This document shows positions 3,949-60,746 of a DNA stretch of 64,000 nucleotides, piece after piece. Numbering within the stretch: the first letter of the stretch is position 1; every line of letters begins with the position of its first letter. Both the position numbers and the translations under genes were made by a program. The stretch spans positions 15,860 through 79,859 of the forward strand of contig JAQGLT010000056.1 of NCBI GenBank assembly GCA_028292745.1, read 5' to 3'. Under the pieces are notes generated by a model, which was not told the origin of the DNA, did no database searches, and saw only the letters and a program-made list of their open reading frames with translations. This stretch comes from Polaromonas sp. (GTDB taxonomy: Bacteria > Pseudomonadota > Gammaproteobacteria > Burkholderiales > Burkholderiaceae_C).

Positions 3949-4769
3949 AGCGCCTCCCTGGAAGGATTTCGGATGTGCAGGCCATTGATTGGTCTGCGGC
4001 CTGGCTGGGCGGTTGGCGCGAATTTGGGGAACCGGCTAGCTCATCTGTGGCTGAAGGTGTGCCTGTACATGAAGCGTTGAATTGCCAGAAGACGGTGGGG
4101 ACAAGATTCGTCTGCCAAATTGCACTGCCATTTGATGAGCCTTACGAACGCTATATCTTCACGACCTCTACCGTTCCCACCCGCGACAACCTGCACGACT
4201 TCTTCAACGGCCTGTGCTGGCTGCGCTTTCCCCAGACCAAGCGGCGGCTGAACCAGTTGCAGGCGGCGGAGATTGAAAAAGCCGGCATCCAGCCCCTGCG
4301 CGGCGCGGTGCGCGACGCGCTGACGGTCTTCGACGAAAACGCCGCCTTCCTGCTGGCGCCGCAGCCGCTCTGGGATGCCTTGCTCGCCCGCGACTGGCAG
4401 CGCCTGTTTATTAGCCTGCGGCCGCTCTGGCAAGAGGCGCAGTTAGTCCTTTTCGGTCATGCGCTGCTCGAAAAGCTGGTTTATCCACGAAAACACATCA
4501 CAGCGCATGTGTATCAAGCGCAACCAGCTATTAATTCAATAGCAGAGCTGGATGGCTGGATTGCCGGCGACCTGCATGCCCCCAAGCTGGCCCGCAAGCC
4601 GTTTACTCCCCTGCCGGTGCTGGGCGTGCCGGGCTGGTGGCCGGGAAATGAAGACCTTTCTTTTTATGACGACATCAGTGTTTTTCGTCCGCGCAGGGAA
4701 GGCGAAAACAGGCAGAAAAACCATGTCCGGCCGCTTCAAAATCCTTACAAAAAACTTGATTTGGACTGA
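3945..4769 (+). CDS. DUF3025 family protein
   Basis: VPTRDNLHDFFNGL, RDALTVFDEN, FGHALLEKL and PLPVLGVPGW motifs. GTG start overlaps the upstream stop. Confidence 0.82.
   Translation: MKRLPGRISDVQAIDWSAAWLGGWREFGEPASSSVAEGVPVHEALNCQKTVGTRFVCQIALPFDEPYERYIFTTSTVPTRDNLHDFFNGLCWLRFPQTKRRLNQLQAAEIEKAGIQPLRGAVRDALTVFDENAAFLLAPQPLWDALLARDWQRLFISLRPLWQEAQLVLFGHALLEKLVYPRKHITAHVYQAQPAINSIAELDGWIAGDLHAPKLARKPFTPLPVLGVPGWWPGNEDLSFYDDISVFRPRREGENRQKNHVRPLQNPYKKLDLD
4480..4544 (-). repeat. Double-palindrome motif copy 1 (inside DUF3025 gene)
   Basis: Minus strand reads GCTAT-TGAATTA-ATAGC-TGGTT-GCGC-TTGATACACAT-GCGC. Confidence 0.8.
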
Positions 4770-4866
4770 AAAATCACTATTTTCCCCTTGTAACCGCACA
4801 ATCGGGCTCAATGTCCCATTGCGTCCTTCCCGCTGTTAACAACTAAACGACTTTTTCGGAGAATCC

Positions 4867-5742
4867 ATGAAACGCATCCTTTTGTTTGTACTGACCAACA
4901 TTGCCGTGGTGGCCGTGCTGGGCATCGTGGCGAGCTTGCTGGGCGTGAACCGTTTCCTTACGCCCAACGGTCTGAACCTGCAGATGCTCCTCGGCTTTGC
5001 CCTGGTGATCGGCTTTGGCGGCGCGATTATTTCTCTGCTGATCAGCAAGCCGATGGCCAAATGGTCGTCGGGCGTGCGTGTCATCAACGAACCCCAGAAC
5101 GCCGACGAGGCCTGGATTGTCGAGACGGTGCGCAGGTTGGCCGACAAGGCGAAGATCGGCATGCCGGAAGTCGGTATTTTCGAGGGCGCCCCCAATGCCT
5201 TCGCGACCGGTGCGTTCAAGAATTCGTCGCTGGTGGCCGTGTCCACCGGTTTGCTTCAGGGCATGACCAAGGAAGAAATCGAGGCGGTGATCGGCCACGA
5301 AATTGCCCACGTGGCCAATGGCGACATGGTCACCATGACGCTGATCCAGGGCGTGATGAACACCTTCGTGGTGTTTTTATCGCGCGTGATCGGCTATGCC
5401 GTGGACAGTTTTTTGCGCCGTGGCGACAACAACAGCTCCGGCCCGGGTATTGGTTATTACGTGAGCACCATCGTGCTCGATATCGTGCTGGGGTTTGCCG
5501 CGGCCATGGTTGTCGCCTGGTTTTCGCGCCACCGGGAGTTCCGGGCGGATGCCGGTTCGGCCCAATTGCTGGGCCGCAAGCAGCCGATGATGAATGCGCT
5601 GGCGCGACTTGGGGGCATGCAGCCCGGCGAACTGCCGAAGGCAGTTCAAACCCTGGGCATTACCGGCGATATTGGCAAGCTGTTTGCCACGCATCCACCC
5701 ATCGAGGAGCGCATTGCCGCGCTTCAAAACGCACAGGGCTGA
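4867..5742 (+). CDS. htpX: Membrane zinc metalloprotease HtpX
   Basis: PNAFATG, HEIAH (HExxH), REFRAD and THPPIEERI motifs. Confidence 0.96.
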
Positions 5743-5762
5743 GGGGGTTTTTTTGTTTTTCG

Positions 5763-5791
5763 AAGGCCGGCACCATGCCGGCCTTTTTTAT
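5763..5791. terminator. Intrinsic terminator between convergent htpX and the ProQ-family gene
   Basis: AAGGCCGGCA-CCA-TGCCGGCCTT hairpin followed by a T-tract. Confidence 0.75.
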
Positions 5792-9500: not shown

Positions 9501-9838
9501 GTGAAGCCTGCCAGACCGCCGCTGGTGCAATCTGGGAAACCAGGCACTGGAGGAACGTCCGGACTGCACAGGACAGCGTCGGAGGTAACACCTCTCCACC
9601 GTGAGGTGAGGATCAGAGCAACAGAGACGAGCCGGTTAAGTCCGGGTGAAACGGGCAATCTCTACGCGCAGCAACACCAAATAGGCCAGCAGTGATGTGG
9701 TTCCGCAGAGCTGGCGGGTAGGTGGCACCGAGCCGGGCAGGCGACTCCCGGCCCAGATTAATGGCGGTCACACCCGGCCGGCTTGCCTTCGGGCAAGGCG
9801 GCCGGGCGCACAAAATCCGGCTTATCGGCGGGCTTCAC
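9501..9838 (+). ncRNA. rnpB: RNase P RNA (type A, compact)
   Basis: P1 pairs GTGAAGCCTGCC with GGCGGGCTTCAC. CR-I is GAGGAACGTCCGG, followed by GCAACAGAGA and GGTGAAAC. CR-V is ACAAAATCCGGCTTAT. A TGcCATAAT -10 lies at 9486-9494. Confidence 0.93.
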
Positions 9839-9866
9839 ACTTAATTCATACGCCCAAGCTATGGTC

Positions 9867-11791: not shown

Positions 11792-13426
11792 TCAGGTGAC
11801 AGGACCCAAGGCCTCAATGCGGTCCACATGCGCCTGCAGCGAACGCAGGGCGATGGGCCAGAGGCGCGGGTCGGTGTCGTCATAGGCCAAGGCCACCCAG
11901 TCCTGCGGCGTGCCGTCGGGCCGGGCGCGCATGGCGGCCGCCACCTTGGCCTCGCGCCTGAGGCGGTGCGCCCGGAGCTGGGCAATGGCTTGCCGGGCCG
12001 AACCCAGCACATGGCCGTGCGCCGGCAGGATGAAGTCGATGCCATGCGCCTCGCAGGCGCTGCCAAGCAGGTTTAGTGAGTCGAGGTAAGCGGTCATTTC
12101 GCCGTCGGGCGGGCTGACGATGGTGGTGCTGCCGTTGAGGATGTGGTCGCCCGAGAACAGCAGGCCGTCTTCCACCAGCACCAGGCAGACATGGTTGGCC
12201 GCATGGCCAGGGGTGAAAATAACCTTCAAAGTGTGCTTTTGCGCTTGATCAGCAAGCACAAGCAGCTCATCATTTGATAGCGGCCGGTCGGGCGTGAAAA
12301 GGGAATCGGCGCGTGCCGTGGCCGCAGACGGCAAACCCAGGATCGGCGGGCGCTGCACGCACAGCGCCTGCAGCGGGCGGGCAGCCGGTGAGTGGTCGGG
12401 ATGCGAATGGGTGCAGACAATCGCCTCGATGCGCCCGCCCGTGGCCGCGTACAGGCGCTCGATGTGCGCCGCGTCGTTCGGTCCCGGGTCAATGACGATG
12501 TAACCGCTGCCTGCCGTGCCGACGATGTAGCTGTTGGTGCCGGGGCCGGTCATGGTGCCGGGGTTGGACGCGGTCAGGCGCATGACGTTTTTCAAAAGCG
12601 GCACGGCGCTTTCGGACTGCCAGTCGAGCGAATGCACCAGCTGGCCGTCGGGGCTGGTCAGCGCCAGTTCGCCGTAGGGCGGCTCATGCTCCATGAAGCG
12701 CGCCTCCCGCCCGCCCAGCAGACCGGCGCGCGGGCACGAGGTCCAGAGCGGCTGGTCATGCCCGCAAGCCATGAGCACCGCCTCCACGCTGGCGTAATGC
12801 TGCAGCCGCTCCAGCGTGCGAAGGGTCGGGAAAATCATGAAAAAACGGCCGTCCGCATGCCGGGCCAGCGCGTCGGCGGGGCGGACCCAGCTGGGCTCGA
12901 ACTGCTCGGCTTCGTCAGCCGCCGGTGTCTGGCCCTCGGGCATGCGGGCGACCAGAAAAGGAACGTCGAAACGGCGCGGCATGTCCCGGTCGGTCACCCA
13001 GTGGGCCAGCACAAAGATGTCGGCGCCTGCCAAGGTGAGCCCTTGCGCCTGGCACTGCGGGGCAAAAGGCGCCTGCCGGTCCAGTGCGGCAATGTCCTGC
13101 GCGGTGGCAGGGCGGCCATCGGCATGGCGCGCCAGCAGCACGCCGAGTTCTTCAAAGCTCTCGCGGATGGCGGCGATGGCCTGCGTGAGGTGCAGGTCAG
13201 ACTGGCCAGGCCGGCGCGTCGATTGCCCATGGGCCGCGGCATCGGCCGCATCAATGCCGCCGCCGGGAAAAACGTAGGCGCCGGGCGCAAAGCTGGCGCT
13301 TGGGGAGCGCCGTGTCATCAGCACTTCGATGCCCTCGGCCGTGTCGCGCAGCAGCAGCACGGTGGCGGCGGGCCGGGTGGGCGCGGGTTCGCGCTGGGGA
13401 TAAAGGAGCTGGTTGGGTCTTGCCAT
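11792..13426 (-). CDS. Nudix hydrolase / metallo-beta-lactamase-fold fusion protein
   Basis: N-terminal YVFPGG..AIRESFEELG Nudix box. C-terminal GPGTNSY, THSHPDH, TPGH, GDH and PAHG. Confidence 0.88.
   Translation of the reverse strand: MARPNQLLYPQREPAPTRPAATVLLLRDTAEGIEVLMTRRSPSASFAPGAYVFPGGGIDAADAAAHGQSTRRPGQSDLHLTQAIAAIRESFEELGVLLARHADGRPATAQDIAALDRQAPFAPQCQAQGLTLAGADIFVLAHWVTDRDMPRRFDVPFLVARMPEGQTPAADEAEQFEPSWVRPADALARHADGRFFMIFPTLRTLERLQHYASVEAVLMACGHDQPLWTSCPRAGLLGGREARFMEHEPPYGELALTSPDGQLVHSLDWQSESAVPLLKNVMRLTASNPGTMTGPGTNSYIVGTAGSGYIVIDPGPNDAAHIERLYAATGGRIEAIVCTHSHPDHSPAARPLQALCVQRPPILGLPSAATARADSLFTPDRPLSNDELLVLADQAQKHTLKVIFTPGHAANHVCLVLVEDGLLFSGDHILNGSTTIVSPPDGEMTAYLDSLNLLGSACEAHGIDFILPAHGHVLGSARQAIAQLRAHRLRREAKVAAAMRARPDGTPQDWVALAYDDTDPRLWPIALRSLQAHVDRIEALGPVT
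12217..12282 (-). repeat. Double-palindrome motif copy 2 (inside Nudix-MBL gene)
   Basis: GCTAT-CAAATGA-TGAGC-TGCTT-GTGC-TTGCTGATCAA-GCGC. Confidence 0.72.
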
Positions 13427-13451
13427 GGCCTGATTTTGCAGCGAAATCGAC

Positions 13452-13513
13452 CCGCCAGCCGCCAGCCGCCAGCCGCAATGCCGCAATGCCGCAATGCCGC
13501 AATGCCGGCAATG
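13452..13513 (+). repeat. Compound short tandem repeat (CCGCCAG)3(CCGCAATG)4 plus one variant unit
   Basis: Read directly from the sequence; begins 26 bp from the Nudix-MBL start codon. Confidence 0.9.
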
Positions 13514-13726: not shown

Positions 13727-14605
13727 ATGCGAATCCGATTCACCAAAATGCACGGCGCTGGCAACGATTTCGTGGTGCTCGATGAAACCCGGGGCGCCCT
13801 GGGCCTGAGCACCGCGCAGTACCGTTTCCTGGCCGACCGCCACTTCGGCGTCGGCGCCGACCAGATTCTCACCGTGCGCCCTTCGCCGGCCGAAGGCATC
13901 GACTTTGAATATGTGATCCACAACGCGGACGGCGGCGAAGTCGAGCAGTGCGGCAATGGCGCGCGCTGCTTTATGCGCTTTGTGCGCGCGCAGGGCCTCA
14001 CCACCAAAGACGCGGTCAGGGTCCAGACCCTGGGCGGCGTGATCGAGCCGCGCCTGCAGGCCGACGGCCGCGTGACGGTGAACATGGGCGCGCCGGTGTT
14101 TGACCTGGACCGCATTCCGTTCAACGCCGACGGCTTGCTGCCGGAATCCTGCGGTTCATGGCAAAAATGGCCACTGGCGCTTGACCTGTCTGCGCAGGAT
14201 GCTCCTGTTCTGATAGCGGTCTTGTCGATGGGCAACCCGCACGCGGTGCAGCTGGTGGCCGATGTGGACACCGCGCCCGTCCTGCAGGCGGGCCCGCTGA
14301 TCGAGCGGCATGCGCGCTTTGCCCGGCGGGTGAACGCCGGCTTCATGCAGGTGGTGTCGCGCGGCCGGGTCCGGCTGCGGGTGTATGAGCGCGGCGCGGG
14401 CGAAACGCTGGCCTGCGGCACCGGCGCCTGTGCGGCGGCGGTAGCGGGCATTCGGCTCGGGCTGCTGGACAACCGGGTGGACGTGCTGACGCGCGGCGGC
14501 CAGCTGACCATCGCGTGGGCCGGCGCGCTGGATGCGCCGGTCATGATGACCGGCCCGGCCACCACCGTGTTTGAGTCCGAGATTGACATTCCCGACCTGC
14601 CGTGA
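13727..14605 (+). CDS. dapF: Diaminopimelate epimerase
   Basis: [26 protein letters not shown] and [11 protein letters not shown] motifs. Confidence 0.97.
14155..14218 (-). repeat. Double-palindrome motif copy 3 (inside dapF)
   Basis: GCTAT-CAGAACA-GGAGC-ATCCT-GCGC-AGACAGGTCAA-GCGC-CAGTGGCCATTTTTG. Confidence 0.78.
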
Positions 14606-16501: not shown

Positions 16502-17734
16502 ATGAAAATCATTCGACTCAAAGACGGCAGGGAACGCTCCTTGCTGCGCCGCCACCCGTGGGTTTTTGATGGCGCCGTCGCCAGTGGCGGCGGTGACGCC
16601 GGCGAAACCGTGCGTATCGAAAGCCACGCCGGCCAGTTCCTGGGCTGGGCCGCCTTCAGCCCCAGTTCCAAAATCCGCGCACGGGTCTGGAGCTTTGCCG
16701 AGGCCCAGCCCATAGACGCTTCTTTTTTCATAGCGCGTATCGCAGACGCCATAAGCGCTAGAGGCCGATTTGATATAAAAAGCGATGGTTTGCGCCTGAT
16801 CCACGGCGAATCCGACGGCTTGCCCGGCCTGGTGGTGGACCGTTACGGCGACACGCTGGTCGCGCAGTTCTCCAGTTGCGGAAGCGAAAAATGGAAGCAG
16901 GTGATCGTTCAGGCACTGCTGGCGCAAACCGGCCTGACGCGCCTGTACGAGCGCTCGGACGCCAGCGTCAGGGCGCTTGAAGGCCTGCCCGAAGCCACCG
17001 GCTGGCTGGCCCATCCAGGCCTTGAATCTGGCCTGCAAGCACCGGGCGCGCCGTTTCCGGACGACACCGGCATCACTATCACCGAGCACGACTGGAAGCT
17101 GAGCCTGGACATTGCCGAGGGCCACAAAACCGGCTTCTACCTCGACCAGCGCGACAGCCGCCTGAAGTTTGCCGCCTATGCGCGCCGGCTGCAGTTCCAG
17201 GACGTGCTCAACTGCTACTGCTACACCGGCGGCTTCACCGTGGCCGCGCTGGCGGGCGGCGCGGCGCATGTCACCTCCATCGATTCATCCGGCCCGGCGA
17301 TCGAGCGGGCAAAGGCCAACGTGGCCCTGAACGGCTTTGACGCCGGCCGCACCACCATGCGCGACGCCGATGTCAACGCCTCGCTGCGCGAGTACCTCAA
17401 GGAAGGCCGGATGTTTGACGCCATCGTGCTCGATCCGCCGAAATTCGCGCCCACGGTAACCCATGCCGAGCAGGCCGCCCGTGCCTACAAGGACATCAAC
17501 CGGCTGGCGCTGTCGATTCTGGCGCCCGGCGGCGTGCTGTTCACTTACTCCTGCTCGGGCGGCATCAGCGCCGACCTGTTCCACAAGATCGTGGCGTCGG
17601 CCGGCACTGATGCCGGCGTGGACGCCTTTATTTCCGAGCGCATGGGCGGCGCGGCCGATCACCCGATGACGGTGGCGTTTCCCGAAGGCGAGTATCTCAA
17701 GGGGCTGGTGCTGGTCAAGCGCCCGGCGAACTGA
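16502..17734 (+). CDS. rlmI: Class I SAM-dependent rRNA methyltransferase (RlmI-like)
   Basis: PUA-like RHPWVF, ESDGLPG, GHKTGFYLDQRD, LDPPKF and EGEYLKG motifs. Confidence 0.85.
   Translation: MKIIRLKDGRERSLLRRHPWVFDGAVASGGGDAGETVRIESHAGQFLGWAAFSPSSKIRARVWSFAEAQPIDASFFIARIADAISARGRFDIKSDGLRLIHGESDGLPGLVVDRYGDTLVAQFSSCGSEKWKQVIVQALLAQTGLTRLYERSDASVRALEGLPEATGWLAHPGLESGLQAPGAPFPDDTGITITEHDWKLSLDIAEGHKTGFYLDQRDSRLKFAAYARRLQFQDVLNCYCYTGGFTVAALAGGAAHVTSIDSSGPAIERAKANVALNGFDAGRTTMRDADVNASLREYLKEGRMFDAIVLDPPKFAPTVTHAEQAARAYKDINRLALSILAPGGVLFTYSCSGGISADLFHKIVASAGTDAGVDAFISERMGGAADHPMTVAFPEGEYLKGLVLVKRPAN
16717..16781 (+). repeat. Double-palindrome motif copy 4 (inside rlmI)
   Basis: GCTTC-TTTTTTC-ATAGC-GCGTA-TCGC-AGACGCCATAA-GCGC-TAGAGGCCGATTTGATATAAAA. 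Confidence 0.78.
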
Positions 17735-17800
17735 AAATAGTGGTCAAATCGGCCTCTGGCGCATGTGGTGTATGTGTTAATTGCTATTAAAATCATAGCA
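17735..17800 (-). repeat. Double-palindrome motif copy 5 (immediately after the rlmI stop)
   Basis: GCTAT-GATTTTA-ATAGC-AATTA-ACAC-ATACACCACAT-GCGC-CAGAGGCCGATTTGA. Confidence 0.8.
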
Positions 17801-17856
17801 AATTTCCTGCGCTGCGGTCACGGCCTTGGCGGGCATGGGCCGGTCTGCCTCGGGGT

Positions 17857-20141: not shown

Positions 20142-20180
20142 TCCTTCTGTCATCCCTGTGTAATTGATTGATTGACCACC

Positions 20181-21971: not shown

Positions 21972-22047
21972 TTCGCGTGTCCCCCTTCTTGTTATGAGAT
22001 TGAGGGAATGGCATAAGCGGCACACTCAAGCATTTTTCATGCTGATT

Positions 22048-22422
22048 CAGCATGTGTTTACGATCTCCTGAGCAATAGCAGCATAAATGTCAGGTGAACA
22101 AACCCCGTGCGGATGTTGAGCAATCAATTGCTCGCAGTTCTTCCTTGGCCTCCAGCTCTTTCTAGCCATGCAAAGCCGCGCTTGACCACCCAGTGCTTGG
22201 GCATAATCTTGAAAGTATGCATTTCGCTGCGCTTGCGCTCTGCACCGTGACCGCATTACCCGAGATGCTACATATCCCTGGGTCAATGGATTGCCCTATA
22301 GCCACTGTCACCCAGGATGCTCTGCGTTCTCGGCCAGCCCCGGCTCGCAGCAGGTGTACCGGTTGATACCTGAAACCTTCTTGCCACGAGAAGCACGAAA
22401 GATCACGAAACAGGTTTTTAAG
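22048..22422 (-). mobile_element. Decayed, internally deleted IS5-family element
   Basis: Frameshifted fragments read GKKVSGINR, QSILGDSGY, KRSEMHTFKIMPKHWVVKRGFAWLE, KNCE and FVHLTFMLLLLRRS*. Imperfect terminal IRs are TGTTTACGATCT (22055) and AGATCACGAAACA (22400). Confidence 0.8.
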
Positions 22423-22966: not shown

Positions 22967-22984
22967 TTGTGAAGGGTTTGAAAA

Positions 22985-23413: not shown

Positions 23414-23419
23414 AAGTAG

Positions 23420-42046: not shown

Positions 42047-42047
42047 T

Positions 42048-42113: not shown

Positions 42114-42190
42114 GCGGCATAGGCGCGCGCGTTGCCTGGCATGCCGTGCCGTGCCGAAACCGGCTTTCCTGCGTCTGTTGCGCACCGCGT

Positions 42191-43803: not shown

Positions 43804-43858
43804 TGAAGTCGTCTCATCCATAAAAGGGGAAGTTTTTAGCACACCCGCAGCGCCAAGC

Positions 43859-44722
43859 TCAGCGGCTGCCCAGCTTGGTCGCCAGACTGTCGTCCTGGCC
43901 GAAATTAAAGCTGGAGACGACCACGATCTGGTCGGCTTTCTGGCGCATCGCGTCGTTGAAGGGCGGAAACGGACCGGTGCCGCGCACGATGACCTGCGCC
44001 TGCCGGTCCAGCGTGGGATTGCCCGACGTCTGCACCACGTCGGTTGCCAGGATGCTGCCATCGAAATTGACCGTCATCGTCATGGTGAGTTCGCCGTACA
44101 GCTTTTTGCCGGCCAGCTGCGGAAAGTTCAGCGTGCCCTTGTCCTCGATCTTGCGGCGCAGCACGTCGTAATACACCGCATAGGCCTCTTCGCGCGTGGC
44201 CGGGCTGATGTAGCGCTTTTTCGGCTGCGCGCTGTCCTCGTTGATGCGTTTTTCGATCTCGGCCAGCAGCTTGACCAGTTGCTTGCGCCTTTCCTCATGC
44301 TCGCTCTGGGCCCGCAGGCTGGCCGGCACGCTCAGGTCGGGCGGGGGCAGGGCGGCCAGCTCCCTCTGGGCCTGCAGCAGCAGTTGGCGCTGCTGCTCCT
44401 TCAGCGACTCGATCTGGCGCTGCTCGACATCTTCCTCCTCTGCATCGCCGACCTTCACGAAGGCGGAGGGCGGCAGCGGCGAGGTGGCCCGGCCTTGCTC
44501 GGCCTCGCCGCCACCCGCCAGCGATGCCTGCGCAATGGCTTTTGCCTCGACGGGTTTCTCCGCCGATTTGCCATTGACCAGAATCACTTCCAGCGGCGTG
44601 TCCTGGAACACGCGGTTGAAGCGTTCCGGGTCCACAAAGCGCACGGCGAGCAGCCCGGCATGGACGGCGATCGAAACGCCCAGGGCGATTTGCAGGGCGG
44701 TGGGGGATTTCACGGCTGGCAA
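43859..44722 (-). CDS. TonB/TolA C-terminal domain protein
   Basis: N-terminal TM with SIAVH. C-terminal GTLNFP..SGNPTLDRQA..PFPPF. Confidence 0.8.
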   Translation of the reverse strand: MPAVKSPTALQIALGVSIAVHAGLLAVRFVDPERFNRVFQDTPLEVILVNGKSAEKPVEAKAIAQASLAGGGEAEQGRATSPLPPSAFVKVGDAEEEDVEQRQIESLKEQQRQLLLQAQRELAALPPPDLSVPASLRAQSEHEERRKQLVKLLAEIEKRINEDSAQPKKRYISPATREEAYAVYYDVLRRKIEDKGTLNFPQLAGKKLYGELTMTMTVNFDGSILATDVVQTSGNPTLDRQAQVIVRGTGPFPPFNDAMRQKADQIVVVSSFNFGQDDSLATKLGSR

Positions 44723-44794
44723 TCGGCGGGTGTTTCAACCGTTGCCGACCTGACGGCCTGGCCAGCATTCGGCGCAAGCGCAAAAGTCATGGGT

Positions 44795-46873
44795 TCAGCC
44801 CGCAGGAGCGGGCTCGGCAGCGGTTTCCGGCTCGCCGAGGTCCACCGCGATCGAGATCGGTCCGACTGCGATCTCTTCCTCGCCCTCGTCGCCCGGATCC
44901 GCTTCCTGGGCCTCTGGCGATGCGTCGGCGGCCGTGTCCAGCCGCTCGATGACGGTGCCCGAGATGTCCAGGGTGATCTCGTCGATCGCCCCCAGCCTGA
45001 CGCGCACCCGGGCGCCGCGCGGCAGGCCCTGTGCGCCCAGGGCCGGCAGCACCAGCGGCAGGTCGTCGGCCCGGACCAGGTTGTCCTTGAAGCTGGTCGC
45101 CGTCAGCTCGGTGATGCCGTTTTGCTGCAGGTATTTCAGCGTCCAGTAGCGCTCGATGCCCGACTGAAAGCCGTTGTAGGCGCTGTAGGCCGCGTCAAAA
45201 CAGGAAATCACCGAGAACAGGTCCGCATCCTTGGGTTTGAAGGGCGCGGCCAGCGCCGCCGTGCGGCCGTGCTGGGTGCAGGCAATGAGCTGCCACTGGT
45301 TCACCAGGTCGGTGTAGCGCCGCAGCGGCGAGGTGCACCAGGCATAGCTTTTCACCCCGATGCCCGCATGCGGCAGCGCCTTGGTGCCCATGCGCACCTT
45401 CACGCCCGGCGCCAGGCTGGCCTGGCTGCGGTAGATGCCCGGAACGCCGTGCTCGGCCAGCCACTGGCCCCAAATGCTGTTGGCCAGGATCATCGCCTCA
45501 GCCACGATCAAGTCCAGCGGCGCGCCGCGCTGGCGCGTGCTGATGCTCACCCGCTCGTCGCCTTGCGGCTCCTGTGCAGAAGGGTTGTCGAGCTTGAAGT
45601 TGTAGTCGGGCCGGTTGAAGTTCTCGGGCTTGCCGCGGACCACTTCGCGCTGTGCCTTCAGATGCCGGGCCAGGCGGTGCAGGAACGTCATTTCCACGCC
45701 CCACTGCACATCGGAAGGGGCCTGGAGCTGCGCGGCTTCAAAAAATGCCTCGGTGAAGGTGTTGTCCAGCGTGTCGTGACGCAGGTTGCTGACGATGGGC
45801 ACCCGTTCGAGCCGGGTAACGCTGCCGGTGATCTCCAGCGTGGCTTCATCCAGCGTCAGGTAGAGCGACAACGCCGGGCAGTCGCGGCCTTCTTGCAGGG
45901 TGTAGCTTTGCACCACCTCGTCGGGCAGCATGGTCAGCTTGTGGCCCGGCATGTACACGGTGGACATGCGCGCGCGGCCGACCGCATCGATCGGGCTGCC
46001 GGGCAGCACGGCCAGGCCGGGCGCGGCAATGTGGATGCCCAGCGTGACGGTGCCATTTCCGCCCTGGCTCGCCAGGCCATGCACCGAGAGCGCATCGTCG
46101 ATCTCGGTGGTGCTGGAGTCGTCGATGGAAAACGCTTGAACCTCTGCCCGCGGCAGCACCTCCTTGACCGGCGGCGCCTGCAGGGCTGGAAACCCCGTGC
46201 CTTTGGGAAAGTTCTCGAACAGGAAGCGCTTCCAGTGGAACTGGTAGGGCGAGGCGATGGCGCCGGCTCGTTGCAGCAGGTCCAGCGGCGCGGTGTTCGT
46301 GGCGCGCGACGCATCGACGACGGCCTTGTACTCGGCGCTGTTCTTGTCGGGCTTGAACAGGATTTTGTAAAGCTGCTCGCGAATCGGCGCCGGGCAGTCG
46401 CCCCGGCCCAGTTCCTCGGCCCAGCTGGCGATCTGGGCCGCGACCTGCTTTTTCTTTTCAATGGCGGCCAGGGCCTGCTGCAGGATTTCGGGCGGCGCCT
46501 TCCTGAAGCGGCCTTTGCCGGCGCGGCGGAAATAATGCGGCGCGTCGTACAGCCGAAAGAGCGCCGCTGCCTGCTGCTCCAGCGACGCGGGCTTGGAGGC
46601 GTCGGCGCTGAAGTACTCGCGCGCCAGGTCGGCGAAACTGAATTCGTCGTCGCTGGCGAATTCCCAGGCCAGGTCCAGGTCGATCTCGTCCGACAGCTTC
46701 TGGCCGGCGGCGATGAAGTCGGCCGGGCCCGGCTTTTCAAACTTCAGCAGCGCATTCGCGGCCTTGACCTTGACCCGCTTGCCCGAGTCGAGTTCGACCT
46801 GCAGCGAGCTGTCGGCCTCCGACAAAATCCGGCCGGCCAGAAATTTGCCGGTTTCTTCAAACAATACAAACAC
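44795..46873 (-). CDS. RNB-domain (RNase II/R family) exoribonuclease
   Basis: FSIDDSSTTEIDDALS, EAMILAN and TSPLRRYTDL motifs. Confidence 0.9.
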   Translation of the reverse strand: MFVLFEETGKFLAGRILSEADSSLQVELDSGKRVKVKAANALLKFEKPGPADFIAAGQKLSDEIDLDLAWEFASDDEFSFADLAREYFSADASKPASLEQQAAALFRLYDAPHYFRRAGKGRFRKAPPEILQQALAAIEKKKQVAAQIASWAEELGRGDCPAPIREQLYKILFKPDKNSAEYKAVVDASRATNTAPLDLLQRAGAIASPYQFHWKRFLFENFPKGTGFPALQAPPVKEVLPRAEVQAFSIDDSSTTEIDDALSVHGLASQGGNGTVTLGIHIAAPGLAVLPGSPIDAVGRARMSTVYMPGHKLTMLPDEVVQSYTLQEGRDCPALSLYLTLDEATLEITGSVTRLERVPIVSNLRHDTLDNTFTEAFFEAAQLQAPSDVQWGVEMTFLHRLARHLKAQREVVRGKPENFNRPDYNFKLDNPSAQEPQGDERVSISTRQRGAPLDLIVAEAMILANSIWGQWLAEHGVPGIYRSQASLAPGVKVRMGTKALPHAGIGVKSYAWCTSPLRRYTDLVNQWQLIACTQHGRTAALAAPFKPKDADLFSVISCFDAAYSAYNGFQSGIERYWTLKYLQQNGITELTATSFKDNLVRADDLPLVLPALGAQGLPRGARVRVRLGAIDEITLDISGTVIERLDTAADASPEAQEADPGDEGEEEIAVGPISIAVDLGEPETAAEPAPAG

Positions 46874-46950
46874 ACCGAAATCCTTTAGCCTGGGTGATCT
46901 GCCCTTGGGGGTGCGGCTAGTGTAATCAGGGCGCCATCGCCAGCGCCCGT

Positions 46951-47535
46951 TCAGGCCAGGTCGAGAAAATCCAGAATGCGCGGCAGGTGCGCGTCGAAGT
47001 CGCTCAGCGCATGGTCCCCGCCTTCCAGCAGGCAGACGGCCGCCCCGGCATAGCGCGCCGCCATTTCACGCCAGTCGAGCACTTCGTCGCCCTTGGCGAT
47101 GATGGCGAAGTAATTTTGCGGCCTCTTCAGCGCGCCGGTTTGCAATGCGCGCAGCTCGTCGACAAAGCGGGCTTCGAAGAAAAAACGCGCCTCCGGCTGA
47201 TGCCAGGCGGTCTGCTCGCCGATATGGCGCGCCAGGTCGCGCGCCGGATCGACGGCGGGGTTGAGCAGCACCGCCTTGCAGCCCAGGCGCTGCGCGAGTG
47301 TGGTGGCATAAAACCCGCCCAGCGACGAGCCGATGACCGCCATGGTGTCGGCCGGCCAGCCGGCCAGCCCTGTTTCCAGCAGCGCCATCGCCGCCTGCGG
47401 AGAGGGCGGCAGCTGCGGGCACCACCAGGTCACGGCCGGATGGCCGGCCGCGACTAGGGAAGCCATTTTTTTCGCCTTGGCGGATTGGGGCGAGGAGCGA
47501 AAGCCGTGCAGGTAGAGCAGGTGGGTGCTGGGCAT
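46951..47535 (-). CDS. YqiA/YcfP family esterase
   Basis: YLHGFRSSP, GSSLGG, LNPAV, GDEVLD and GGDH motifs. Confidence 0.9.
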   Translation of the reverse strand: MPSTHLLYLHGFRSSPQSAKAKKMASLVAAGHPAVTWWCPQLPPSPQAAMALLETGLAGWPADTMAVIGSSLGGFYATTLAQRLGCKAVLLNPAVDPARDLARHIGEQTAWHQPEARFFFEARFVDELRALQTGALKRPQNYFAIIAKGDEVLDWREMAARYAGAAVCLLEGGDHALSDFDAHLPRILDFLDLA

Positions 47536-47598
47536 GCCCGAATAGTAAGCGCGCTGCTGGCAAGCCCCGCATGGCCGAGACTGCTGCCAGAGGCCAGA

Positions 47599-47662
47599 TT
47601 GATGATCAAATAGCCTCCTGGCGCACGCGGGGTAAGCGTTATAAGCTATGTTTTCAATAGCA
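47599..47662 (-). repeat. Double-palindrome motif copy 9 (esterase/rodA divergent region)
   Basis: GCTAT-TGAAAAC-ATAGC-TTATA-ACGC-TTACCCCGCGT-GCGC-CAGGAGGCTATTTGA. Confidence 0.8.
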
Positions 47663-47727
47663 ATTTTGACGCTGAGCGGTTCCTTCGGCGAACAGGGTTT
47701 CATGCGGGCTGGCTGATAATCCCGGCC

Positions 47728-48882
47728 ATGTCCGCCGCTTTCGACCAACCCTCTCTTTACCAGCGCACCCTGCCTCTGCTGCAGGGCTTTGACGGGCTGC
47801 TCGCCTTTGCCGTGTTCCTGCTGGCGGGTGCCGGCTTGCTCATCATGTACTCGTCGGGCTACGACCACGGCACCCGCTTTGCCGACCATGGCCGCAACAT
47901 GCTGATTGCCGGCGCCATCATGTTCGTGGTGGCGCAGGTGCCGCCGCAAAAGCTGATGATTTTCGCCGTACCGCTGTACATCACTGGCGTGGCGCTGCTG
48001 GTGGCGGTGCTGGTGTTCGGCATCACCAAGAAGGGCGCGCGGCGCTGGATCAACCTCGGGGTGGTGATCCAGCCCAGCGAAATTTTGAAGATCGCCGTGC
48101 CGCTGATGCTGGCTTGGTGGTTCCAGAAGCGCGAAGGGCAGTTGCGGCCTTTCGATTTCGCCGTCGGCCTGCTGCTGCTGGCGCTGCCCGTGGGGCTGAT
48201 CATGAAGCAGCCCGACCTGGGCACCTCGCTGCTGGTGCTGGCCGCCGGGCTGGCGGTGATTTTCTTTGCCGGCCTGAGCTGGAAGCTGATACTTCCGCCG
48301 GTGCTGCTGGGCGTTATCGGCATTTCGCTGGTCGTCTGGTTCGAGCCGCAGCTGTGCGCCGACGGCATGCGCTGGCCGGTGCTGCACGACTACCAGCAGC
48401 AGCGCATCTGCACCCTGCTTGACCCGTCGCGCGACCCGCTCGGCAAGGGCTTTCACATCATCCAGGGCCTGATCGCCATCGGCTCGGGCGGCGTGTTCGG
48501 CAAGGGCTTCATGGCCGGCACGCAGACGCACCTGGAGTTCATTCCCGAACGCACGACCGACTTCATCTTCGCGGCCTACTCCGAGGAATTCGGCCTGGTC
48601 GGCAACCTGCTGCTGATCGCCGGATTCCTGTTCCTGATCTTTCGCGGGCTGGCCATCGCGATCGAGGCGCCCACTTTGTTCTCGCGGCTGCTGGCCGGTG
48701 CGCTCACGATGATCTTTTTCACCTACGCTTTTGTGAACATGGGCATGGTCAGCGGCATCTTGCCGGTGGTCGGGGTGCCGTTGCCCTTCATCAGCTATGG
48801 CGGAACAGCCATGGTGACGCTGGGGCTGGCGGTGGGCATGCTGATGTCGATTGCCAAGGCCAGGCGCCTGGTGCAGACCTGA
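47728..48882 (+). CDS. rodA: Rod shape-determining SEDS protein RodA
   Basis: GARRW, IQPSE, QPDLGT, IPERTTDFIF and GVPLPFISYGG motifs. Confidence 0.94.
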   Translation: MSAAFDQPSLYQRTLPLLQGFDGLLAFAVFLLAGAGLLIMYSSGYDHGTRFADHGRNMLIAGAIMFVVAQVPPQKLMIFAVPLYITGVALLVAVLVFGITKKGARRWINLGVVIQPSEILKIAVPLMLAWWFQKREGQLRPFDFAVGLLLLALPVGLIMKQPDLGTSLLVLAAGLAVIFFAGLSWKLILPPVLLGVIGISLVVWFEPQLCADGMRWPVLHDYQQQRICTLLDPSRDPLGKGFHIIQGLIAIGSGGVFGKGFMAGTQTHLEFIPERTTDFIFAAYSEEFGLVGNLLLIAGFLFLIFRGLAIAIEAPTLFSRLLAGALTMIFFTYAFVNMGMVSGILPVVGVPLPFISYGGTAMVTLGLAVGMLMSIAKARRLVQT

Positions 48883-52567: not shown

Positions 52568-53995
52568 CTACGGTTGCAGGGCCGCCAGCAGCTTGGCGTG
52601 AATGCCGCCAAAGCCGCCATTGCTCATGCAGAGCAAATGATCCCCCGGTCGCACCGCAGCCTTGACCTGCGCCAGCAACTGCTCCAGGTTATCGGCCACC
52701 CGGGCGCGGTCGCCCAGTGGGGCCAGGGCCAGCTGGCTGTCCCAGTCGAGTCCGCCGGCATGGCAGAACGCCAGGTCGGCCTGCGCCAGGCTCCAGGGCA
52801 ACTGCGCTGTCATGGCGCCCAGCTTCATGGTGTTGCTGCGCGGCTCAAAGATCGCCAGGATACGCTCGGCCTTTTTGCCCGCGCCATCCAGCTGGCGGCG
52901 CAGCCCATCAACCGTGGTCTGAATCGCTGTTGGATGGTGGGCGAAGTCGTCATAGACCGTGATGCGGCCATCGCCGCGCTGCACGATGCCGCGCACCTCC
53001 ATGCGGCGCTTGACGTTCTGGAACAAAGCCAGCGCCTCTGCGGCCAGCGCCGGCGCAACGCCCACGTGTTCGGCCGCCGCCAGGGCGGCCAGGGCATTGC
53101 GTTGGTTGTGCCTGCCGCTGATGCCCCACCGGACCCGGGCGACAACGTCGCCGTCCTTCAATACCGTGAAATCATTGGGCTCTCCCTGCGCGGTAAAGCC
53201 TTCGCTGTGCGTAGATAGGCTGCCGAACGGCACCTGCTCGCTCCAGCAGCCTTGGGTCAATACACGCTGCAGACTGGCTTCGGTGGCATTGACGACCACC
53301 CGGCCTTCAGCGGGAACGGTACGGATCAGGTGGTGGAACTGCCTCTCGATGGCCGCCAGGTCATCGAAAATATCGGCATGGTCAAACTCCAGGTTGTTCA
53401 GGACCGCCGTGCGCGGGCGGTAGTGCACGAACTTGCTGCGCTTGTCAAAAAAGGCGGTGTCGTATTCGTCCGCCTCGATCACAAAGGCGTTGCCGCTGCC
53501 CAGGCACGCCGACACGCCAAAATTCAGCGGCACGCCGCCGATCAGAAAGCCGGGCTGCAGACCGGCATGCTCCAAAATCCACGCCAGCATAGCGGTCGTG
53601 GTGGTTTTTCCGTGCGTGCCGGCAACGGCGAGCACATGGCGCGGGCCGGTTGCATGGTGAGTGGGGTGGTGAAGGACGTGGCCCGAGAGCCATTGCGGTC
53701 CGCTGGTATAGGGCTGGCCGCTGTTCAAGATGGCTTCCATCATCGGGTATTTCGGCTGGCCGTTAGCCAAGCGGGCCCGCGACACCACATTACCAATGAC
53801 AAACACATCGGGTGCCAGGGCCATCTGGTCGGCGCCGTAGCCTTCAATCAGGTCAATGCCCAGCCCGCGCAACTGATCGCTCATCGGCGGATAGACGCCC
53901 GTGTCACAACCCGTCACTTTGTGACCCGACTCCCTGGCCAGGGCGGCCAGGCCGCCCATGAAAGTTCCGCAAATTCCCAGAATATGTATGTGCAT
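52568..53995 (-). CDS. mpl: Murein peptide ligase
   Basis: MHIHILGICGTFMG, EADEYDTAFFDKRSKF, DDFAHHP and MSNGGFGG motifs. Confidence 0.96.
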   Translation of the reverse strand: MHIHILGICGTFMGGLAALARESGHKVTGCDTGVYPPMSDQLRGLGIDLIEGYGADQMALAPDVFVIGNVVSRARLANGQPKYPMMEAILNSGQPYTSGPQWLSGHVLHHPTHHATGPRHVLAVAGTHGKTTTTAMLAWILEHAGLQPGFLIGGVPLNFGVSACLGSGNAFVIEADEYDTAFFDKRSKFVHYRPRTAVLNNLEFDHADIFDDLAAIERQFHHLIRTVPAEGRVVVNATEASLQRVLTQGCWSEQVPFGSLSTHSEGFTAQGEPNDFTVLKDGDVVARVRWGISGRHNQRNALAALAAAEHVGVAPALAAEALALFQNVKRRMEVRGIVQRGDGRITVYDDFAHHPTAIQTTVDGLRRQLDGAGKKAERILAIFEPRSNTMKLGAMTAQLPWSLAQADLAFCHAGGLDWDSQLALAPLGDRARVADNLEQLLAQVKAAVRPGDHLLCMSNGGFGGIHAKLLAALQP

Positions 53996-54030
53996 CCTCT
54001 GTATTCTAGGCAAGCGCTGCCGTACGCTTT

Positions 54031-54096
54031 TTTTCTGCCTCGAAAGCGCAGTAGCCGCCCTGAGCATGAGCGTCACTAGCTATAAATGTCATAGCA
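54031..54096 (-). repeat. Double-palindrome motif copy 10 (mpl divergent region)
   Basis: GCTAT-GACATTT-ATAGC-TAGTG-ACGC-TCATGCTCAGG-GCGG-CTAC. Confidence 0.68.
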
Positions 54097-54223
54097 ATTA
54101 CAAAACCCGTGCAACTTTGGTGGCGCCAGCGTGCCTAATGTCGGCACAATTGGCCTGCATCGCCTTGTCGCTGACCTGAACCCAACCTTTAACCGTGCGC
54201 CCCGGCGCCAGCCGACCTTGACC

Positions 54224-58683: not shown

Positions 58684-58744
58684 GAAACCCCTCACTTTTT
58701 TGATGACTGTTTTTGTCGTAATCAACGTCTGATCATTGCGCCAA

Positions 58745-59785
58745 ATGAGTCAGATCACACGCTGCCCCGGTTGCGCAACGATGTTCAAGGTCGTTGCTGA
58801 CCAGCTCAAGGTGGCGCAAGGCTGGGTGCGCTGTGGGCAGTGCGGCGAAGTGTTTGACGCTGCCCGCCAACAGGTGATAGCCGAAGCCACCTGGCCGGAC
58901 ACACTGGCGTCTGTTCCGCCAGGGCTGGGAACCCCCGGTCAGTCAGGCAGGCTGCAGGGGATGCCGCCAGAACAGCCCTTAACGGGTTTTTCTGACAACG
59001 TGACACCAGGAGCCGTGGGGACGGCCTCGGCAGATCCACCCGTTGGAATGGCGCCTGAGCCCCGCGACTTGGAACTGGATGAGGTCGGAGCAGAGGCGCT
59101 GGAGTCCACGCCGTCGGGTGCCGGCAGTCCGCTGGACGTTTCTTTGGTGACTGGCAAAGCGCCTGTAAATCCGCTGCCAGCGCAGCCGGAGTCACAGGAG
59201 CCACTTTTTCCCCTTGAAGGCGAGGCCGCAACCGACATTTCTTTTGTGCGCGATGCCGATAGCGGCGCATTCTGGGCATCGTCGCCGGTTCGTGCTGTAT
59301 TGGGCGCTGTTTGCATCATGCTGCTGGTTGCGCTGGCCCTGCAGTGGGTGCTGCGCCAAAAAGATATTTTGGCGGCGCAGGAGCCTAGGCTGGCACCTGT
59401 GCTCCAGGCGCTTTGCCGCCCGTTGGGGTGCGTGGTTGGTCCGCTGCGCCGCATCGAGTCGCTGCTGATTGAAAGCGCAAACTTCACCAAAACCGGCCCC
59501 AATGCCTATCGCCTCGCGTTCGTCTTGAAGAATGTGGACGCCGTTGCGCTTGAAATCCCGGCACTGGAAGTCACGCTGACAGACAGCCGGGACGAGGCTT
59601 TGGTGCGGCGAGTGGTCATGCCTGCGCAGTTCGGCGCCGCTGCTGCCACGCTGGCGGCCTATTCGGAGTTGACCGGCACCCTGATGCTAAAAATTTCCAG
59701 TGATCCCGGCCAGGGCACCGCCTCCCGGCAGCCTGCTGAACTTTTGCCGGTGGCGAGCTACCGCATCGTGGCTTTTTATCCTTGA
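58745..59785 (+). CDS. Zinc-ribbon and DUF3426 domain membrane protein
   Basis: CPGC..F.V..DQL...GWVRCGQC zinc ribbon, a TM segment and a periplasmic C-terminal domain; downstream of prmA. Confidence 0.85.
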   Translation: MSQITRCPGCATMFKVVADQLKVAQGWVRCGQCGEVFDAARQQVIAEATWPDTLASVPPGLGTPGQSGRLQGMPPEQPLTGFSDNVTPGAVGTASADPPVGMAPEPRDLELDEVGAEALESTPSGAGSPLDVSLVTGKAPVNPLPAQPESQEPLFPLEGEAATDISFVRDADSGAFWASSPVRAVLGAVCIMLLVALALQWVLRQKDILAAQEPRLAPVLQALCRPLGCVVGPLRRIESLLIESANFTKTGPNAYRLAFVLKNVDAVALEIPALEVTLTDSRDEALVRRVVMPAQFGAAAATLAAYSELTGTLMLKISSDPGQGTASRQPAELLPVASYRIVAFYP

Positions 59786-59802
59786 ATTGAAATGAGAACC
59801 GA

Positions 59803-60705
59803 ATGTCTTCTGTAATTTGCGGCTCGCTCGCTTTTGACACCATCATGCGTTTCGAGGGGCGTTTTGCCGAACAGATACTGCCTGAGCAGTTGCATATCCT
59901 GAATGTGTCTTTCCTGGTCCCCGCGCTGCGCAGGGAATTTGGCGGCTGCGCGGGCAATATTGCCTACAGCCTCAAGCAGCTGGGCGGATCACCCTTGCCG
60001 ATGGCAACGGTAGGCAGTGACGGCACCGACTACCTCGCGCGCATGCAGGCGCAGGGCATTAGCACCGAGTTCGTGCGCGAAGTGGAGAACGCCTATACCG
60101 CGCAAGCCATGATCATGACCGACCGCGATAACAACCAGATCACGGCATTTCATCCAGGGGCGATGATGCAGGCCCATATCAGCCGGATAGAGGCGCGCAG
60201 CGACATCTCCCTAGGCATTATTTCGCCCGACGGCCGCGATGCCATGGTGCAGCATGCCGAGCAGTTCAAGGCCGCAGGCATTCCATTTGTCTTTGATCCA
60301 GGGCAGGGGCTGCCGATGTTTGACGGCCCTGAACTGGCGCAGTTTGTCGAACTGGCCACATGGGTAACCGTCAATGACTATGAAGCCCGGATGCTGTGCG
60401 ACCGCACAGGCCTGTCGTGCGCCGAGCTGTCGCGCCGCGTGCGGGGCTTGATCGTCACGCTGGGGGCTGAGGGATGCGAAGTCTGGATTGAGGGCAATAA
60501 AACTCTGGTGCCTGCGGTCAGGGCCGAGGCAGTGGTTGATCCTACGGGCTGCGGCGATGCCTTTCGTGGCGCGCTGCTTTTTGGACTGGAGCAGGGATGG
60601 CCGCTGGCCCGTTGCGCCGCGCTGGGCAACCGCGTAGGCGCACACAAGATCGCCAGCCGCGGCGGGCAAAACTATACGCTGAATCAAGCACAAATCAGTG
60701 GTTAG
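59803..60705 (+). CDS. PfkB-family kinase (adenosine/nucleoside kinase-like)
   Basis: GSLAFD, FGGCAGN, FDPGQ and DPTGCGDAF motifs. Confidence 0.9.
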   Translation: MSSVICGSLAFDTIMRFEGRFAEQILPEQLHILNVSFLVPALRREFGGCAGNIAYSLKQLGGSPLPMATVGSDGTDYLARMQAQGISTEFVREVENAYTAQAMIMTDRDNNQITAFHPGAMMQAHISRIEARSDISLGIISPDGRDAMVQHAEQFKAAGIPFVFDPGQGLPMFDGPELAQFVELATWVTVNDYEARMLCDRTGLSCAELSRRVRGLIVTLGAEGCEVWIEGNKTLVPAVRAEAVVDPTGCGDAFRGALLFGLEQGWPLARCAALGNRVGAHKIASRGGQNYTLNQAQISG

Positions 60706-60746
60706 CGCAGGTGCTATATGCATAGTATGCTATTAATTTTGCAGCA
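60682..60746 (-). repeat. Double-palindrome motif copy 11 (overlaps the 3' end and stop of the PfkB gene)
   Basis: GCTGC-AAAATTA-ATAGC-ATACT-ATGC-ATATAGCACCT-GCGC-TAACCACTGATTTG. Confidence 0.7.

Follow-up and report, generated by a model that had tools for sequence, protein, structure and literature searches.

A dispersed 67-nt two-palindrome DNA motif between and within genes of Polaromonas: a candidate recognised site in the Comamonadaceae

The 64-kb stretch of Polaromonas sp. DNA analysed here (the window) carries 11 copies of a motif of about 67 nt, six of which lie in frame inside genes (DUF3025, NUDIX/metallo-β-lactamase (MBL), dapF, rlmI-like, murG and aroE; all Pfam-confirmed). Copies were scored with an nhmmer model built from genome copies after the entire window had been masked, here termed the independent model, and this genome (G000) was the reference for comparisons with relatives (G003, G006, G008 and others). 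The copy in the DUF3025 gene (3945-4769, plus; Pfam DUF3025 at residues 54-251) lies in frame at 4481-4547 on the opposite, minus strand (E = 1.5e-8) and has orthologous copies in G215, G203, G006, G008 and G011; in G186 and G211 the site is of equal length and the motif is absent. At 12219-12285 (minus; E = 1.1e-5), the copy in the NUDIX/MBL-fold gene (11792-13486, minus) is covered by the Pfam Lactamase_B match (residues 315-473), with orthologues in motif-rich genomes and decayed sites in G186, G007 and G211. Within dapF (13727-14605, plus; Pfam DAP_epimerase), the copy at 14155-14221 (minus; E = 4.1e-6) encodes ..SWQKWPLAL...AQ.AP..IA.. between both epimerase domains, at a place where the genus has 16 extra residues relative to other families; the DNA blocks are kept across eight genus genomes.

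Length-neutral overlay was observed directly in the rlmI-like PUA-methyltransferase gene (16502-17734, plus), in which the copy at 16714-16780 (plus; E = 2.7e-9) overlies a native linker helix codon for codon. Alignment with Escherichia coli YccW (3c0k) shows 0 residues added at 72-93. The copy retains 17 of 22 native residues, and motif-poor genomes have a similar peptide of the same length written in GC-rich codons. At the 3′ end of murG (33215-34417, plus; Pfam Glyco_tran_28_C at residues 229-380), adjoining the start of murC, the copy at 34299-34365 (plus; E = 3.5e-7) has orthologues in G003, G006 and G008, the G003 copy being identical at 61 of 67 positions. The copy in aroE (42943-44061, minus; Pfam shikimate dehydrogenase domains), at 43205-43272 (minus; E = 2.5e-9), is accompanied by about 10 added residues and overlaps the native ALEG.FDVIVNA segment in alignment with 3pwz and 3pgj; G006 has an orthologous copy. 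The coding location of these six copies had gone unnoticed in the first-pass annotation of the window.

Three of the other copies are intergenic. One (17737-17803, minus; E = 4.1e-11) directly follows the stop codon of the rlmI-like gene, with same-place copies in G006, G008, G009 and G011; it is absent in G003, where the spacer is about 67 nt shorter. Another (42043-42112, plus; E = 9.7e-11) abuts the start codon of a ruvC-like gene (41498-42046, minus), and G006 has a 1.7-kb segment in its place. The best-scoring copy in the window (47598-47669, minus; E = 5.4e-11) has a G006 copy adjacent in synteny. At 54032-54101 (minus; core at 54055), in the 5′-terminal part of gene 52568-54076 (minus), lies a copy so decayed that the independent model does not score it; only a model containing it found it. 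At the orthologous site G006 carries a strong copy (E = 2e-13), and G000 has about 50 nt less at this place. The last copy (60682-60753, minus; E = 9.6e-5) lies at the 3′ end of gene 59803-60705 (plus) in a convergent spacer and has an orthologous G006 copy at E = 2e-10.

The first-pass annotation had described the motif as occurring in both orientations at about one copy per 6 kb, and both statements extend to the whole genome. The independent model recovered 10 of the 11 window copies (E = 4e-11 to 1e-4) and gave 561 matches at E ≤ 1e-4 in 3.78 Mb—a directly observed density of about one per 6.7 kb—with 275 copies on the plus and 285 on the minus strand; the reversed and codon-block-shuffled genomes both gave 0 matches at E ≤ 1e-3. 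The regular expression of the first pass matched 159 times in the genome compared with 0 and 0 in these controls. Copies are more evenly spaced than random (CV of 0.83 versus 0.965 ± 0.037), and 163 lie in convergent gene spacers and 45 in divergent ones, with orientation neutral to transcription (162 same, 178 opposite). Open frames with coding-like flanks hold 90 of 560 copies in a strict test and up to 242 in a loose one (16-43%), in both orientations and several reading frames, and at strong columns intragenic copies agree with the consensus almost as well as the rest (identity of 0.865 versus 0.896). Among genera, the distribution is patchy. A search of Rfam 15 returned only RNase P at the gathering threshold and, across 41500-48500, 0 matches overlapping a motif copy at E ≤ 1.

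The consensus, TTGCTAY-N7-ATAGCT-N4-GCGCA-N9-TGCGC-YAGAGGCC-N-TTTGAT, has the master form GCGCAGGC-N3-GCCTGCGC and comprises about 30 constrained positions and two palindromes. The 5-7-5-5-4-11-4 layout and the orientations described in the first pass are present in all 11 core spans; the 23-bp distance between palindrome centres recurs in the genome-wide consensus (columns 12 and 35), and the loose YAGAGGC..ATTT tail proves real in the form YAGAGGCC..TTT. Fixed spacing, likewise proposed from the window, was observed to be essentially invariant, with only 4 inserted residues over 561 aligned copies, whereas the claim that spacers differ freely does not stand, as a weak spacer consensus exists. 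The word RTAGC, conserved to at least 97%, precedes the GC-rich palindrome by 5 nt, and a T run follows this palindrome at about 10 nt. Base-pair covariation in the stems is absent among copies within the genome, and single-strand hairpins are weak (z of −2.4 to +0.7), folding no better than shuffled sequence; given this weakness, two-fold symmetry is the only structural clue. Terminal inverted repeats are absent from the 561-copy consensus (TTGCTA.. on the left and ..TTTGAT..AAA on the right are non-complementary), as are target-site duplications of k = 3-8 across 12 left and 23 right boundaries, for which the best candidate occurred in 5 of 560 copies. In both features the motif departs from a MITE.

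Most copies occupy sites shared with related species. All 21 relative copies that show orthology in two flanks together with a local gap—15 from contig C4 of G006 and 6 from contig C43 of G008—have a same-site copy in G000, and no recent between-species gain was seen at the orthologous sites compared. The conserved blocks persist although the surrounding DNA diverges, with coding DNA only 75-82% identical; the named genomes closest to G000 are Polaromonas, at 84-87% nucleotide identity. The suggestion that the motif was not recently transposed is thus upheld by orthologous sites across species and by blocks that outlast their diverging surroundings, as well as by the missing duplications and inverted repeats. 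Lineage versions were also observed directly: at column 42, G000 reads C where G006 reads G in 14 of 15 orthologous pairs (5 of 6 with G008), and columns 30-31 read CC in 8 of 15 G006 copies versus 0 of 15 G000 copies. Through these changes the second palindrome persists in a different register, GCGCA-N9-TGCGC versus GCCC-N9-GGGC, and the change is present at intragenic sites too.

Sister genomes show the motif in decay, and those without the family have peptides of unchanged length written in GC-rich codons. On a matrix that omits lineage-specific columns, four orthologous coding sites score 6 to 42 bits in motif-rich genomes and −16 to +2 in the motif-poor G186, G007 and G211. The alignments are ungapped or differ by a few bases, with short indels in the MBL and dapF rows, and the peptides are similar; regional G+C is equal in motif-rich and motif-poor genomes (0.63-0.67). 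Third-codon-position identity between G000 and G006 is 58% in four coding copies and 61% in their flanks, so that constraint is visible as motif retention only and not as raw conservation.

We tentatively interpret the motif as an ancient composite DNA signal that occurs throughout the Comamonadaceae and is recognised as a site, probably by a two-fold-symmetric protein or complex—a reading that is quite possible while falling short of probable. It consists of a 17-bp palindrome rich in A+T, a second, GC-rich one whose centre lies 23 bp off, and a T-tract tail. Orthologous sites, lineage palindrome versions and motif-free sisters with equal peptide length together argue for maintenance by a lineage-specific force acting at the DNA level; the difference between motif-rich and motif-poor genomes calls for such a force. 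A sequence-directed force on the DNA itself would hold the motif copy by copy in the G000 lineage, most plausibly through recognition by a putative trans-acting protein or complex of two-fold symmetry, with the sites under purifying selection and co-evolving with this putative reader. The copies are not fresh insertions; many would have arisen, or stayed, by base substitution in pre-existing sequence, some of it coding, and the motif would decay in lineages that lost the reader. BIME/REP sites, which serve gyrase and IHF, are a model for maintained reader sites. That a protein reads the motif, and what role it has, is what we infer; the analysis turned up no reader protein for the motif. Set against this reading, 67 bp and about 50 bits are far more than any single known binding site, and the length gained by dapF (+16 residues) and by aroE (about +10) is a pointer to an insertional past. 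Should a trans-acting reader maintain hundreds of 67-bp sites that can be imposed on essential genes by substitution, the result would be a genome-wide DNA signal of previously undescribed size and architecture. The Comamonadaceae are abundant and easily cultured, and offer a natural experiment in which motif-bearing and motif-free sister species should differ in the reader gene.

An insertional past would suit an old, selfish mobile palindromic repeat, similar to REPs or Rickettsia palindromic elements, that is homogenised by a hairpin-nicking enzyme and repair from other copies, that is, by biased gene conversion; the enzyme could be a single-copy RAYT-like HUH protein or another, as a candidate only. 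High copy number, patchiness among genera and the extra length at dapF and aroE agree with this idea, which we nevertheless consider somewhat unlikely, and concerted change among copies is the expected outcome of conversion. Like REP, BIME and REPIN sequences, the motif has hundreds of copies that favour 3′ ends and convergent spacers and have persisted vertically for long, and a palindrome beside a TAG-containing word (RTAGC 5 nt from the GC-rich palindrome resembles GTAG with a REP hairpin), although the 67-nt element has a second palindrome and the stem lacks the within-genome covariation. G000 has a RAYT-like Y1_Tnp gene (C69:3913-4608), one motif copy in G203 lies 8 nt from such a gene and a weak copy lies beside one in G187. 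REPs, however, are extragenic, typically flank their RAYT and co-occur with it, whereas 16-43% of motif copies lie in open reading frames and the RAYT-like gene has neither a flanking nor a phyletic link: no copy lies within 2.5 kb of it in G000, none flanks it in G006, G008 or G215, and of 61 genus genomes 60 have it intact, among them 16 with 0-9 motif matches. Also counting against conversion or mobility are the absent target-site duplications and terminal inverted repeats, the want of recent gains between species and spacers that stay local rather than consensus-like in the supposedly converted copies, the rlmI-like copy keeping its 17 of 22 native residues. The Rickettsia palindromic elements (RPEs), reportedly described by Ogata and colleagues in 2000, are comparable as palindromic repeats that are old, conserved in position and read in frame within conserved genes. 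They are insertions, each adding 30-50 residues. Compared by description, the motif differs in that at least one copy adds no residues and the DNA motif is actively maintained, and its hosts, unlike those of RPEs, are free-living with large populations. An RPE-type insertion adding its own length was rejected: the rlmI-like, aroE and dapF copies add 0, about 10 and 16 residues, compared with 22 element codons.

A further comparison is with DNA uptake signals, of which the USS belong to the Pasteurellaceae and the DUS to the Neisseriaceae. Similarly to these, the motif occurs genome-wide, in both orientations and in genes without length change, has its own version in each lineage at orthologous sites, and arises and persists in place rather than by transposition; it could be a self-recognition sequence for natural transformation in the Comamonadaceae, spread or kept by biased uptake and recombination (molecular drive). 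That the motif is an uptake sequence of this kind, long, with two palindromes and a version for each species, we think unlikely. Hundreds of rather evenly spaced copies, decay in some lineages and the ComEC and PilQ found in G000 fit, as do full copies in Acidovorax temperans DSM 7270, a species known as transformable. Type IV pili mediate natural transformation in two members of the Comamonadaceae, Verminephrobacter eiseniae and A. temperans, and competition data suggest selective DNA binding, with the uptake sequence not known (PMC4212676); an uptake function would account for this species-specific, competition-resistant transformation, although species specificity in Acidovorax could simply reflect a requirement for homology. 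ComEC and PilQ occur in motif-poor genomes just as in motif-rich ones and therefore show no phyletic link with the motif. Known signals have non-palindromic cores of 9-12 bp at about one per kb, compared with 67 bp and two palindromes at about one per 6.7 kb and a symmetry that is kept when the lineage version changes; uptake bias has been shown experimentally for USS and DUS. Either main outcome—a chromosome-structuring or topology site, or an uptake signal of a group known as competent—would be new biology. Convergent-gene enrichment and the T run about 10 nt past the GC-rich palindrome might instead suggest a transcript terminator, stabiliser or small RNA module. Orientation neutral to transcription, the many copies in reading frames, absent covariation, folding no better than shuffled sequence and the lack of a copy-overlapping match in Rfam, either at the gathering threshold or, in 41500-48500, at E ≤ 1, make an RNA-level element very improbable.

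The first-pass annotation had proposed a candidate undescribed system, but the motif is not entirely new to the literature, since word pairs from it were already listed. Tong et al. (2017, BMC Genomics 18:27; PMC5217627) reported ATAGCT(N)22CAAAAG in Polaromonas naphthalenivorans CJ2 and GCTTAT(N)5AAGCG in Acidovorax ebreus TPSY, both unexplained, with 125 copies, 81% intergenic and 14% in genes, many between convergent genes. Their ATAGCT corresponds to columns 16-21 here and is followed, 22 nt on, by the last C of the right arm and a purine-rich tail (columns 44-49); their GCTTAT-N5-AAGCG fits our GCGC-N11-GCGC, the arms of which stand 11 nt apart. That study gives word pairs only, as potential novel motifs, with neither the full element nor a mechanism, and without lineage versions, orthology or coding overlay (PMC5217627). 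The β-proteobacterial repeat element (BRE) of Polaromonas, Rhodoferax, Acidovorax and Delftia is about 90 bp long with 69% G+C, forms tandem arrays, has at most 29 copies and includes some coding copies (Hot et al. 2011; PMC3110155). The motif likewise occurs in Comamonadaceae genera and is in part coding, and is set apart by description through its AT-rich core, single dispersal and hundreds of copies. For annotation it is a hazard, as it confounds gene calling and can pass for a mobile element.

The layout GCTAY-N7-RKAGC-N5-GCGC-N11-GCGC, which the first-pass annotation had described at eleven loci, is present at all eleven in the orientations claimed, and a profile built from these loci matched about 600 sites in the source genome of the window (G000; 3.78 Mb in 154 contigs, with the window at C42:15860-79859). 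A non-circular profile, rebuilt from matches outside the masked window, regained 10 of the 11 window copies (E values of 4e-11 to 1e-4) and detected 561 copies in G000 at E ≤ 1e-4. The motif also withstood the shuffle control: at E ≤ 1e-3 the profile matched nothing in the genome read in reverse or in its codon-block shuffle, and the original regular expression, with 159 matches in the genome, gave 0 in each of the two, ruling out chance or composition as its source. The family alignment extends over 67 columns, TTGCTAY-N7-ATAGCT-N4-GCGCA-N9-TGCGC-YAGAGGCC-N-TTTGAT followed by an A run, with only four inserted residues across the 561 aligned copies and an information content of roughly 50 bits (a hand sum over the column table). 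The copies resemble departures from one master, GCGCAGGC-N3-GCCTGCGC. One copy in Polaromonas glacialis R3-9 (L129) scores in both orientations; its GC-rich palindrome has arms lengthened to about 12 bp each (AGCTGCTTGCGC / GCGCAAGCAGCT), a hint that the element's central 33 nt form a single long imperfect palindrome.

In its anatomy the family is unlike a transposon: terminal inverted repeats are lacking from the consensus, and a scan of all plausible boundaries found no target-site duplication. Action at the RNA level appears highly improbable: neither palindrome has base-pair covariation within the genome, mutual information lying mostly between neighbouring columns, and ten window copies fold as single strands no better than shuffled sequence. 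Rfam and tRNA searches returned no match at the copies, and a tRNA, an Rfam family or another known RNA is rejected as the identity of the motif. The sole Rfam match in the window is a full-length bacterial class A RNase P RNA at 9503-9840 (+), with 190 bits.

The copies are old and fixed in place. Comparison with two relatives, G006 and G008, was restricted to copies with orthology on both flanks and a local gap on syntenic contigs (n = 21; 15 on G006:C4 and 6 on G008:C43); at every one of these 21 sites G000 has a copy, with coding DNA only 75-82% identical, and G006 shares 10 of the 11 window copies. The intergenic copy that follows the stop codon of the rlmI-like gene is kept in G006, G008, G009 and G011, in a spacer whose remainder is unalignable; in G003 this copy is missing and the spacer is about 67 nt shorter.

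At these shared sites the second, GC-rich palindrome exists in lineage-specific versions. Its consensus is GCGCA-N9-TGCGC in G000 and GCGCCCG..GGGC in G006 and G008, where the arms are GCCC and GGGC and the centre has moved by one. At 14 of 15 orthologous pairs, alignment column 42 has C in G000 where G006 has G (5 of 6 pairs with G008), and columns 30-31 read CC in 8/15 G006 copies versus 0/15 G000 copies. The same split is found inside genes, where G215 and G203 resemble G000 and G006, G008, G009 and G011 carry GGGC; further versions are GGGGC in G011 and AAGGGC in G217. From these versions at orthologous copies it follows that hundreds of pre-existing sites have been altered in parallel with two-fold symmetry retained, and this parallel change rules out common descent of the copies as the cause of the lineage-specific versions.

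Six window copies, whose genic location the first-pass annotation overlooked, lie inside genes identified by Pfam with reading frames kept open: DUF3025, a NUDIX/metallo-beta-lactamase gene, dapF, an rlmI-like PUA-methyltransferase gene, murG and aroE. Genome-wide, the frame remains open across 30 or more codons to either side at 242 of 560 copies, compared with 86% of random intervals; under a stricter test, with coding-like flanks demanded as well, 90 copies pass, and these fall into four main frame and orientation classes. These intragenic counts rest on flank coding scores and Pfam rather than on the crude gene caller, which covers 73% of the genome. Intragenic copies match the consensus at 0.865 on strong columns, other copies at 0.896. 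The dapF copy spans 22 codons in a protein that is 16 residues longer in this genus than in other families; the aroE copy, with about 10 extra residues, overlaps the native ALEG.FDVIVNA segment; and the rlmI copy adds no residue relative to E. coli YccW. Some copies at least are therefore superimposed on native coding sequence. The peptide of the rlmI copy shares 17 of 22 residues with the form found in motif-poor relatives. Four G000-G006 pairs had no excess third-codon-position identity inside coding copies (58% versus 61% in flanks), in a comparison whose block-column and other-column labels are off by one column. The dapF copy of G004 (L009:1944-2003) has 8 extra codons, and no other genome has an AT-rich half so near the consensus in this copy, which looks refreshed or hit a second time.

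At the DUF3025, metallo-beta-lactamase, dapF and rlmI sites, motif-rich relatives keep the blocks and their AT-ending codons, whereas motif-poor G186, G007, G211 and partly G003 encode similar peptides with GC-ending codons. The motif-poor alignments are ungapped or have short indels only, the metallo-beta-lactamase and dapF rows differing by few bases; by hand count, rlmI codons ending in A or T number 14/21 in G000 and 4/21 in G186. A scoring matrix derived only from copies outside the window, with lineage-specific columns omitted, gave 6 to 42 bits at the four sites in motif-rich genomes and -16 to +2 in motif-poor ones, against a null that averages -42 and has its 99.9th percentile at -4. 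Since the two groups do not differ in regional G+C (0.63-0.67), G+C pressure is rejected as an explanation for the decay. In conserved-protein identity, motif-poor G186 and G007 stand as near to G000 as motif-rich G203 and G215, and nearer than motif-rich G006 and G008, so that loss of the motif along the motif-poor lines is the more parsimonious account.

The closest named genomes to G000 are Polaromonas (84-87% nucleotide identity), and a relaxed pattern gave 0 to 452 matches per genome within the genus, with at least 100 in 29 of 61 genomes and 0-9, near control level, in 16 of 61. Full copies were found by a collection scan in Polaromonas, Rhodoferax, Acidovorax (including A. temperans DSM 7270), Curvibacter, Hylemonella, Ottowia and Xenophilus; stray pattern matches in Opitutus, Thermoguttaceae and Asaia were rejected by the profile. 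A pattern fitted to the G000 version reached 10 or more matches in about 22 of the 150 genera sampled in the family, a lower bound. One unpublished genome, G189, enters only the genus tallies and the RAYT-like, ComEC and PilQ checks, and no conclusion depends on it.

Taken together, these observations require a lineage-specific force acting on DNA sequence at fixed sites and preserving two-fold symmetry. Our tentative preference is for a candidate site of a symmetric trans-acting protein or complex, which would be under selection and co-evolving with its reader. A gene-converting selfish element of the REP type is a more doubtful account. G000 does carry a single-copy RAYT-like Y1_Tnp gene (G000:C69:3913-4608), with one copy 8 nt from its counterpart in G203 and a weak copy beside that in G187; no copy lies near the gene in G000, G006, G008 or G215, and 60 of the 61 genomes of the genus, motif-poor ones included, have it intact. 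Neither flanked by copies nor co-distributed with the motif, RAYT is rejected as the driver. This RAYT-like HUH gene adjoins gltB and lies about 6.5 kb from pilQ (G000:C69:3913-12340), a neighbourhood that recurs in G203, G215 and G006.

A drive resembling that of DNA-uptake signals seems unlikely. V. eiseniae and Acidovorax are naturally transformed via type IV pili, and competition data suggest selective DNA binding, no uptake sequence being known (Davidson et al. 2014; PMC4212676). ComEC and PilQ occur in motif-poor as well as motif-rich genomes; these competence genes are therefore uninformative and rejected as a correlate. The RAYT-like gene, ComEC and PilQ yielded no driver. Turning to described motifs, the unexplained word pairs ATAGCT(N)22CAAAAG in P. 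naphthalenivorans and GCTTAT(N)5AAGCG in A. ebreus (Tong et al. 2017; PMC5217627) are both compatible with the present geometry. The BRE of Hot et al. 2011 (PMC3110155) is probably a different element, since it is described as GC-rich, about 90 bp long and tandem.

Within G000, convergent gene pairs enclose 163 copies and divergent pairs 45, and between tandem genes orientation is neutral to transcription (162 same, 178 opposite). Spacing is more even than random (CV 0.83 versus 0.965 ± 0.037), to which the mostly intergenic location could contribute; about 20 pairs within 150 nt, in mixed orientations, form a doublet class apart. Copy orientation tracks GC skew weakly (312 of 560 against local skew), too weakly for a replication-strand polarity of the Chi or KOPS kind, which is ruled out. 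No copy occurs at window 17.8-34.3 kb, where long ORFs at 20172-24676 have low codon-usage scores relative to the remaining window; a foreign origin is possible for the first part of this gap, after which comes the dcw cell-wall cluster. The start of a ruvC-like gene (41498-42046, -) adjoins the end of a copy (window 42043-42049), the last bases of which enter the ATG, and no Shine-Dalgarno sequence was seen in its AT-rich leader. G006 offers no clean empty site for this copy: a segment of about 1.7 kb there separates ruvC from the next gene (G006:C4:147106-148820), where G000 has 143 nt (window 42047-42190), mostly motif copy.
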